Positions 57,777 through 58,466 of a stretch of DNA of 64,000 bases are shown one piece after another. This stretch comes from Rickettsiales bacterium. Lineage in GTDB: Bacteria; Pseudomonadota; Alphaproteobacteria; Rickettsiales; UBA8987. The stretch covers positions 640,140 to 704,139 of the forward strand of contig OZ244955.1 of NCBI GenBank assembly GCA_965222525.1, given 5' to 3'. A model generated the notes under the pieces. That model was given only the letters and a program-made list of their open reading frames with translations, had not been told where the DNA came from and made no database searches. Position numbers and translations under genes: made by a program. Each line of letters starts with the position of its first letter. Within the stretch, counting starts at the first letter, position 1.

Positions 57777-57881
57777 TTACTTCCCTATACAGAAACTTGA
57801 AAAAACCTTGTCCAGGATATCCTCGACACCTATAGTGCCGGTGATTTTGTCCAGCCATAGGAGTTCTCTTTTTGAAAGTTT
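57777..57881 (-). pseudogene. mnmE: remnant of the mnmE (trmE) 3' end: last 34 codons only
   Basis: The minus-strand translation KLSKRELLWLDKITGTIGVEDILDKVFSSFCIGK* carries the invariant MnmE C-terminal FCIGK motif. An in-frame TAA at 57884-57882 truncates it. It sits in the canonical position immediately upstream of mnmG. Confidence 0.7.
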
Positions 57882-57920
57882 TTAATAAGTAGGCTTAGCT
57901 GTGGATATAATTAATTCGTC

Positions 57921-58466
57921 CTAAAACATCCTCCAATATAAATACCCATATAACACACCGTAAGACACTAGGTTAATCATAAATATGGTGCTGCGAACAG
58001 GGGAGTGTCGAGCGTTATGTCCTAGCAATTTACTTAACTTTTTGCATTTGACGTACCATGCAATATAAAAGAATACAGCAGCAAAATATAAAAATGCAAT
58101 AGTTAGTACGGCAGGCTGTCTTGGGTCAATTCCACTGTTCCATACTACAATTGTTACAAAGATTCCAGTTGCGAGGCAGATAACAAATGCCCATATGTTT
58201 GCCATGAGCATTGTTTTGAATATACTGAAAAATTTTACATTTTTTAGTTTTTTGGTAATCCGTCCAGATAAGTTATTCAGTGCTACTGCCTCCCATAAAG
58301 TCATTAATATTGAACTGATTATAGGAATATAAATGAACAGAAAACGTTGAAATGACGGATCCATCAGTAGTATAGAGGAAAAAGCATATGCTGGGGTGCT
58401 TGCAATAAACAGCATAGCAGCAATAAGTGCTGGGAGATGTAAGCTATTTTGAGAAAATATTTTCAT
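57921..58466 (-). CDS. hypothetical polytopic membrane protein, visibly AT-rich gene
   Basis: About five hydrophobic helices and no recognisable family. It occupies the place where the body of mnmE would be expected. Confidence 0.45.
   Translation of the reverse strand: MKIFSQNSLHLPALIAAMLFIASTPAYAFSSILLMDPSFQRFLFIYIPIISSILMTLWEAVALNNLSGRITKKLKNVKFFSIFKTMLMANIWAFVICLATGIFVTIVVWNSGIDPRQPAVLTIAFLYFAAVFFYIAWYVKCKKLSKLLGHNARHSPVRSTIFMINLVSYGVLYGYLYWRMF

Follow-up and report, generated by a model that had tools for sequence, protein, structure and literature searches.

A 3' remnant of mnmE upstream of an intact mnmG: a probable rearrangement scar in an isolated alphaproteobacterial lineage

Introduction

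What became of mnmE at a locus where mnmG is complete and only the tail of its partner gene is left, and does MnmG still have a partner? A passage in PMC12632869 states that MnmE and MnmG work only as a complex, with which the synthesis of (c)mnm5U34 begins. The locus lies near the end of the window, i.e. the whole stretch of 64,000 nucleotides that was analysed. For comparison we collected 160 loci that encode MnmG relatives from GTDB representatives and JGI metagenomes, and took the MnmE proteins from the same loci. The features of the region are as follows.

55772-57643, minus strand: mnmG, intact; likely start GTG 57643, 623 aa (TIGR00136, conserved columns)
57644-57776, minus strand: 133-nt spacer of the ancestral mnmE-mnmG pair (GC about 0.28), holding the 34 codons of the MnmG extension (57742-57644) (stop-to-D distance, N-terminal lengths, GC)
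57777-57854, minus strand: mnmE 3' stub with solid homology, last 25 codons LDKITGTIGVEDILDKVFSSFCIGK and TAA (HMM, tblastn, PDB, PSSM)
57855-57884, minus strand: KLSKRELLW, nine in-frame codons and the preceding TAA; doubtful MnmE homology, outer limit of the remnant (PSSM, gapped tblastn)
57885-57920, minus strand: linker of 12 codons, DELIISTAKPTY, no homology; in frame with both ORF181 and the stub (translation)
57921-58466, minus strand: ORF181, complete gene, 181 aa, signal-peptide-like N-terminus and four transmembrane helices (homologues, alignment, AF2, composition)
58467-58645, no strand: AT-rich intergenic DNA that separates the divergent genes ORF181 and arsR, GC 0.28; left limit of the AT-rich island (composition)
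58646-59819, plus strand: arsR-family regulator (58646-58972; Pfam HTH_20) and trhO, tRNA U34 hydroxylase (58974-59819; NF001133)

Identity and extent of the mnmE remnant

The minus strand translates from 57881 to 57780 as KLSKRELLWLDKITGTIGVEDILDKVFSSFCIGK and then reaches a stop, the TAA at 57779-57777. Another in-frame TAA (57884-57882) stands ahead of it, and the wider stretch 57920-57774 reads DELIISTAKPTY, stop, KLSKRELLWLDKITGTIGVEDILDKVFSSFCIGK, stop. The first-pass annotation had recognized this tail and the preceding stop as the end of an mnmE gene upstream of mnmG, and indeed the only matches are MnmE C-termini. More specifically, a phmmer search of the PDB returned four MnmE/TrmE chains and nothing else, each matched at its extreme C-terminus, and in tblastn all 59 MnmE queries (those from the first 80 MnmG loci) hit 57780-57881 on the minus strand, with no other convincing site in the window. 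An HMM built from the MnmE proteins of the relatives, run with filters off against all six frames of the whole window, gave a sole match at 57780-57854 (minus strand, independent E-value 4.7e-9), which covers profile positions 428-452 only. A word-indexed search with a 42-aa query containing the stub yielded no word-sharing candidate. Judged by these comparisons, the match of the tail to MnmE is not a product of chance.

It had been proposed that mnmE is cut down to its last 34 codons. A frame of 34 codons is present, but solid homology extends over the last 25 only. A PSSM was derived from 86 distinct MnmE C-termini and scored by leave-one-out. In this matrix the last 25 residues of the stub score 73.3, at the 34th percentile of functional MnmE (mean 77.7, sd 10.8); they consist of FCIGK and the 20 residues before it, that is the C(I/L/V)GK end and the last helix of the helical domain, within the functional score range. 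When the stub is extended to 31 or 34 residues the score becomes 44.7 or 27.8, against minima for functional MnmE of 55.8 and 55.2. The nine codons before the last 25 (KLSKRELLW) score below every functional MnmE unless an insertion of three codons is allowed; with this insertion, gapped tblastn recovers some similarity (for example RLAMREL---GRITG versus KLSKRELLWLDKITG), as in the alignments of this region with relatives L004 and L015. On the PSSM scores, the segment 57854-57780 is the only part of the tail with solid homology to mnmE.

The stub lacks the N-terminal folate-binding domain, the helical domain and the G domain (G1-G4) in one frame of some 440-460 aa. As read from the sequence it is a non-coding remnant, neither an ORF nor a functional MnmE, because its frame holds no ATG, GTG or TTG. 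The six-frame search of the 64-kb window with the MnmE HMM revealed neither an intact mnmE nor a second fragment of the gene. One candidate piece of the MnmE N-domain, at 58541-58594 on the plus strand (LYFKKKHSYNQSKILELH versus LYFPAPHSFTGEDVLELH), came up in tblastn for 15 of the 59 queries with E = 0.035-7 and found no support from the HMM; the likeness of LYFKKKHSYNQSKILELH to the N-domain sequence LYFPAPHSFTGEDVLELH is probably a chance one in AT-rich DNA.

The mnmG gene and its start codon

The protein encoded by mnmG has all the features of the MnmG/GidA family. It matches TIGR00136 with 856.4 bits (cut-off 524.85) over profile positions 1-614 of 616 as well as the Pfam families GIDA, GIDA_C_1st and SAM_GIDA_C, and it has both the GGGHAG FAD-binding motif and the C-terminal helical domain. 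In an alignment with 77 relatives, all 184 columns that are at least 95% conserved are kept, including 14 of 14 in the C-terminal helical domain, where 23 of 23 are kept at the 80% level. Retention of the 80%-conserved columns over the whole protein is 0.964 (median of the relatives 0.968), and MnmG is on average 0.60 identical to its homologues in Alphaproteobacteria, a typical value. MnmG shows no sign of relaxed selection.

The first-pass annotation also attributed to MnmG an atypical N-terminal extension of about 38 aa, starting from the ATG at 57742, 34 nt past the stop of the stub, and the source annotation has the same over-long start. This extension could not be upheld. The relatives have 3-12 residues ahead of the motif DVxVxGGGHAG; a start at GTG 57643 gives seven, one of the two commonest values, whereas ATG 57742 puts 40 residues before the D of the motif, more than the 95th percentile of the longest N-termini that the relatives could have. 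The match to TIGR00136 starts at residue 40 of the 656-aa product (the Pfam and TIGR profiles begin at residue 40-41), and the composition of the extension is that of intergenic DNA (GC 0.29, GC3 0.27). The extension is most likely a mis-called start that would not be translated, and GTG 57643 is the start that fits the relatives.

Measured from the stop of mnmE, the D of the same motif lies 154 nt away, as compared to a median of 117 (IQR 93-158) in 75 relatives in which the two genes are adjacent. Stub, spacer and mnmG are one contiguous ancestral block. The view that this copy of mnmE was destroyed is borne out: only its 3' tail is left, at the ancestral distance from mnmG, and no other piece occurs in the 64 kb. 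As regards expression, transcription of mnmG by read-through from ORF181 seems plausible, because no terminator-like site is predicted between these two genes and neither the stub nor the spacer has a sigma-70-like promoter site on the minus strand.

Gene order around mnmG

That mnmE and mnmG are widely adjacent, as had been stated, agrees with the relatives. Among the 131 loci whose sequence extends 1.5 kb or more upstream of mnmG, the commonest state (62 loci) is a full mnmE within 400 bp; in 26 loci mnmE lies a few kb away, and in 43 there is none within 10 kb. E. coli is an example of a genome in which mnmE and mnmG are unlinked. The genomes of the 43 loci resemble ours in that mnmG has no functional mnmE next to it; unlike here, they carry no mnmE tail beside mnmG, and a partial stub in that position was found in none of the 131 loci. 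In this lineage the two genes were ancestrally adjacent, as the tail shows.

In Alphaproteobacteria the two genes belong to an origin-proximal cluster, hemE...rho-mnmE(trmE)-mnmG(gidA)-rsmG(gidB)-parA-parB, represented in full by Sneathiella chinensis (L002) with hemE-hemH-hemJ-rho-x-mnmE-mnmG-rsmG-parA-parB; rsmG directly follows mnmG in 83 of 141 loci. The window has the same mnmE-mnmG junction with normal spacing, and hemE and a cluster of DnaA boxes are also there. In contrast to the canonical arrangement, the cluster is fragmented: mnmE is a tail, mnmG lies 55 kb from hemE, and none of rho, hemH, hemJ, rsmG, parA and parB is found in the 64 kb. A remnant of rsmG was looked for downstream of mnmG and was not found. 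The hemE gene (3 to about 968, minus strand) is cut by the left edge of the window, its match to the URO-D profile reaching position 311 of 346, and the canonical rho-mnmE site, downstream of hemE, would lie just beyond that edge. On this gene order, the ancestral arrangement survives in a 2.1-kb island, mnmG and the stub, that is broken off at either end.

Upstream of hemE, an AT-rich spacer of 434 bp (969-1402, GC about 0.29) contains six DnaA boxes at 1089-1367, two of which are perfect (TTATCCACA); the whole window has 38 boxes against 17 ± 4 expected by chance. The spacer resembles a Caulobacter-type hemE-adjacent oriC and may be a putative origin; CtrA-type TTAA-N7-TTAA sites were not found in it. 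An oriC adjacent to gidA occurs in E. coli. The AT-rich island at 57.6-58.6 kb was considered as a site of this kind and rejected, as it holds one 8/9 DnaA box only (57900-57908). Between 11696 and 57742 the minus strand carries about 35 of the 41 long ORFs, among them mnmG and those of the ATP synthase operon; they point to the putative oriC at about 1.2 kb and would be head-on to replication. GC skew was considered as a sign that the 12-58 kb block had recently been inverted, and neither supports nor refutes this, since GC3 skew tracks the coding strand.

On the other side of the AT-rich island lie arsR and trhO, which are not ancestral neighbours of mnmE; TrhO matches NF001133 with 307.6 bits (cutoff 170), and a homologue occurs in one of the 160 mnmG loci. 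Three genes acting on tRNA position 34 are found within 6.5 kb, namely queH (epoxyqueuosine reductase, 53369-54046, minus strand), mnmG (55772-57643, minus strand) and trhO (58974-59819, plus strand); their proximity may be a coincidence. Between the trhO region and pyrF the plus strand encodes a mazE/mazF toxin-antitoxin pair (60381-61039; MazF NF007386, 122 bits), preceded by an AT-rich gap (59820-60015) and an ORF of 118 aa rich in Ala and Ser (60016-60372, plus strand) that matches no family. Elsewhere in the window, a protein of 690 aa (46612-48684, plus strand) has weak Ser/Thr-kinase-like matches only, the best being the MAD6 defence kinase with 39.8 bits, far under the cut-off. Stretches of low GC (0.36-0.38) occur at 29601-30200, 38801-39900 and 63001-63500, and an ORF of 228 aa (38773-39456, minus strand), whose GC3 of 0.30 is as low as that of ORF181, may be another acquired gene.

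The membrane-protein gene next to the remnant

The place of mnmE had been said to be taken by an unrelated, AT-richer gene for a polytopic membrane protein, and this description stands: ORF181 has a GC content of 0.355 and a GC3 of 0.33 as compared to a GC3 of 0.51-0.60 in the neighbouring genes, and has no similarity to MnmE. Its stop-free run of 186 codons was reached in none of 5000 shuffles of 57882-58645 (shuffle maximum 165). A word-index search returned ORF181 itself only; the idea of a protein without relatives was rejected, as phmmer, run exhaustively over 1.84 billion representatives, gave 18 full-length homologues of 144-193 aa with 25-40% identity and E-values down to 2.5e-20. Pfam, PHROG and PADLOC contain no family that matches.

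The alignment of the homologues has invariant D36, F39, P48 and F128, and ORF181 displays the traits of the family: a hydrophobic N-terminus ending in PAxAF(N/S), the motif LxDPxF, the conserved P48, F128 and Y173, and four long helices. The C-terminus is common to the homologues, and the ends of the gene are theirs. With the homologue alignment, AlphaFold2 gave a model (pLDDT 83.4, pTM 0.73) with an N-terminal helix and helices at 37-66, 79-108, 118-148 and 156-180; no PDB structure gave a significant match. By the measure of its homologues, ORF181 is a real gene, complete at both ends, of a small, conserved and undescribed family. The possibilities that it is spurious or arose de novo from decayed mnmE were discarded, as homologues exist, the ends match theirs and similarity to MnmE is absent.

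The homologues are on contigs of uncultured organisms, in housekeeping contexts. The recurrent context is zapE(AFG1 ATPase)-X-ispH(LytB), with both neighbours present in two loci (L166, L167), the ispH side in two (L161, L165) and the zapE side in one (L164); three others (L168-170) have pdxH downstream instead, and two contigs (L162, L163) were too short to give a context. Here the gene lies between arsR and the mnmE stub, outside the usual context of the family; the window contains no zapE or ispH homologue, and no ORF181 homologue occurs among the 160 mnmG loci. ORF181 was probably acquired or relocated, because it is much AT-richer than its neighbours. Low GC alone, however, is no proof of foreign origin, as the family genes elsewhere are somewhat AT-richer than their flanks (by 0.01-0.10 in most loci, with one slightly above its flanks); the two closest homologues are on contigs of 35-42% GC.

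The region 58467-58645, which has no match in Rfam, presumably carries the promoters of ORF181 and of the divergent arsR. The ArsR-family regulator (58646-58972, plus strand) is 63% identical to an HTH_20 protein (3926-4216) of the metagenomic contig L166, encoded 3.6 kb from the ORF181 homologue there, and a functional link with the ORF181 family is possible. That the linker of 12 codons and the stub are in frame with ORF181 has a chance of one in three and no evident meaning.

Origin of the junction

We consider the locus a rearrangement scar in a genome that has an intact mnmE elsewhere, and give this reading a probability of about 0.7. In the scenario that we propose, mnmE once lay directly upstream of mnmG, as it does in most relatives among the Alphaproteobacteria, and the 75-105 nt at 57777-57881 are its non-coding 3' tail. 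An illegitimate recombination or translocation with one breakpoint inside mnmE, at 57855-57920, would have taken out the first approximately 410 codons of the gene, and would have joined the tail, the spacer and mnmG to an AT-rich segment with the complete, foreign or relocated ORF181. Another break, immediately past the end of mnmG, would have removed rsmG-parAB. The promoter of mnmG would now lie in the spacer or stub that were kept, or the gene would be transcribed by read-through from ORF181. We took the completeness of ORF181, as compared to its 18 homologues, to argue for the joining of a complete gene.

Neither direct or inverted repeats nor microhomology were found at the joint, and no integrase, tRNA or Rfam element was found around the locus. 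An illegitimate event or translocation is preferred over a site-specific element because repeats, a second mnmE 3' end, an integrase, a tRNA and an Rfam element are all absent. The joint must fall within 57855-57920. The breakpoints and the order of events can be neither dated nor reconstructed because there is no close relative, the best identity to this MnmG being 65% both in GTDB representatives and in JGI metagenomes. The proteins of the window are singletons in a clustering at 90% identity.

The locus resembles the truncated pseudogenes found at rearrangement or indel breakpoints, where likewise a start-less 3' fragment and a retained downstream gene border on unrelated DNA of another composition. 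It differs from these in that IS ends, repeats and an integrase are missing, and in that none of the 131 comparable loci has such a stub.

Does MnmG keep a partner?

An intact mnmE is probably present elsewhere in the genome of 2,114,217 bp. This is considered the most likely state because MnmG is undamaged, unlinked arrangements are frequent and the canonical site lies outside the window; the prime candidate position would be downstream of hemE-(hemH-hemJ-rho), beyond window coordinate 1.

The strongest competitor, which we consider improbable, is that mnmE was truly lost when a non-duplicative inversion or deletion split the gene, so that MnmG is an orphan that has yet to decay in an organism without (c)mnm5U34. 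A simple split would indeed kill the gene, as E. coli MnmE without the cysteine of the C-terminal CIGK is inactive. On either side of mnmG the ancestral cluster is interrupted, and the 64 kb hold no mnmE. The last 25 codons of the stub are undecayed, as they would be after a recent event; a very recent loss would be compatible with this, and after a recent total loss MnmG would look intact as well. Against a loss stand the 184 of 184 strongly conserved columns of MnmG, together with its position at the median of the relatives for 80%-conserved columns, and the dependence of the two proteins on each other; to our knowledge, mnmE and mnmG co-occur almost universally. In addition, unlinked genes are common (43 of the 131 loci lack an mnmE within 10 kb). 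Less probable again, and in our judgement quite unlikely, is a genome without any functional MnmE in which a perfectly conserved MnmG acts alone, with a non-orthologous partner or in a second role, in a deep-branching alphaproteobacterium of free-living genome size (2.1 Mb).

An integrative element of the SGI1 type offers another way to bring foreign DNA to the 3' end of mnmE, and we regard it as very unlikely here. Islands of the SGI1 family target the 3' end of trmE, leave the gene intact and are flanked by repeats of 18 bp (PMC8409611, PMC6531882). In that case the stub would be attR, the native 3' end pushed away by the insertion, with an intact mnmE at the far end of the island. The likeness consists in foreign DNA joined to the region of the mnmE 3' end (PMC8409611), as the AT-rich DNA that adjoins the stub and the mazEF module at 60381-61039 would suggest. 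However, SGI1 duplicates 18 bp, whereas here the gene body is gone, the stub measures 75-105 nt rather than 18, and neither direct nor inverted repeats flank it. A second copy of the 18 nt that end mnmE does not occur in the window, even with up to three mismatches, and an att repeat of the SGI1 kind was searched for in the window and dropped, with neither a direct repeat at the borders nor a tyrosine integrase among the neighbouring genes found. Moreover, no integrase-like ORF occurs from the stub to pyrF and glnA, which are housekeeping genes at 61-63 kb, and no mnmE occurs up to 64000. The SGI1 elements are known from Gammaproteobacteria.

An artefact of assembly or sequencing, in which a chimeric join or a collapsed region makes an intact mnmE seem truncated, is a general caveat that the first-pass annotation raised; nothing specific speaks for it, and it is the least probable explanation: the source is a single contig of 2.11 Mb, the junction is unique sequence without repeats, ORF181 is complete with homologues and the normal ends of its family, and errors of the frameshift type are unable to swap 1.2 kb of mnmE for an unrelated gene.

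Implications

The start of mnmG should probably be corrected from ATG 57742 to GTG 57643 in the annotation. As a by-product, the analysis brought to light a small undescribed family of four-helix membrane proteins with a secretion signal. Furthermore, in this isolated lineage a widely conserved origin-proximal cluster has been broken up. If the whole genome were found to be without mnmE, it would be the first well-supported case of an MnmG that persists without its obligate partner; otherwise the locus would be of an ordinary kind, a piece of a gene left where a rearrangement joined unrelated DNA, in an isolated lineage.
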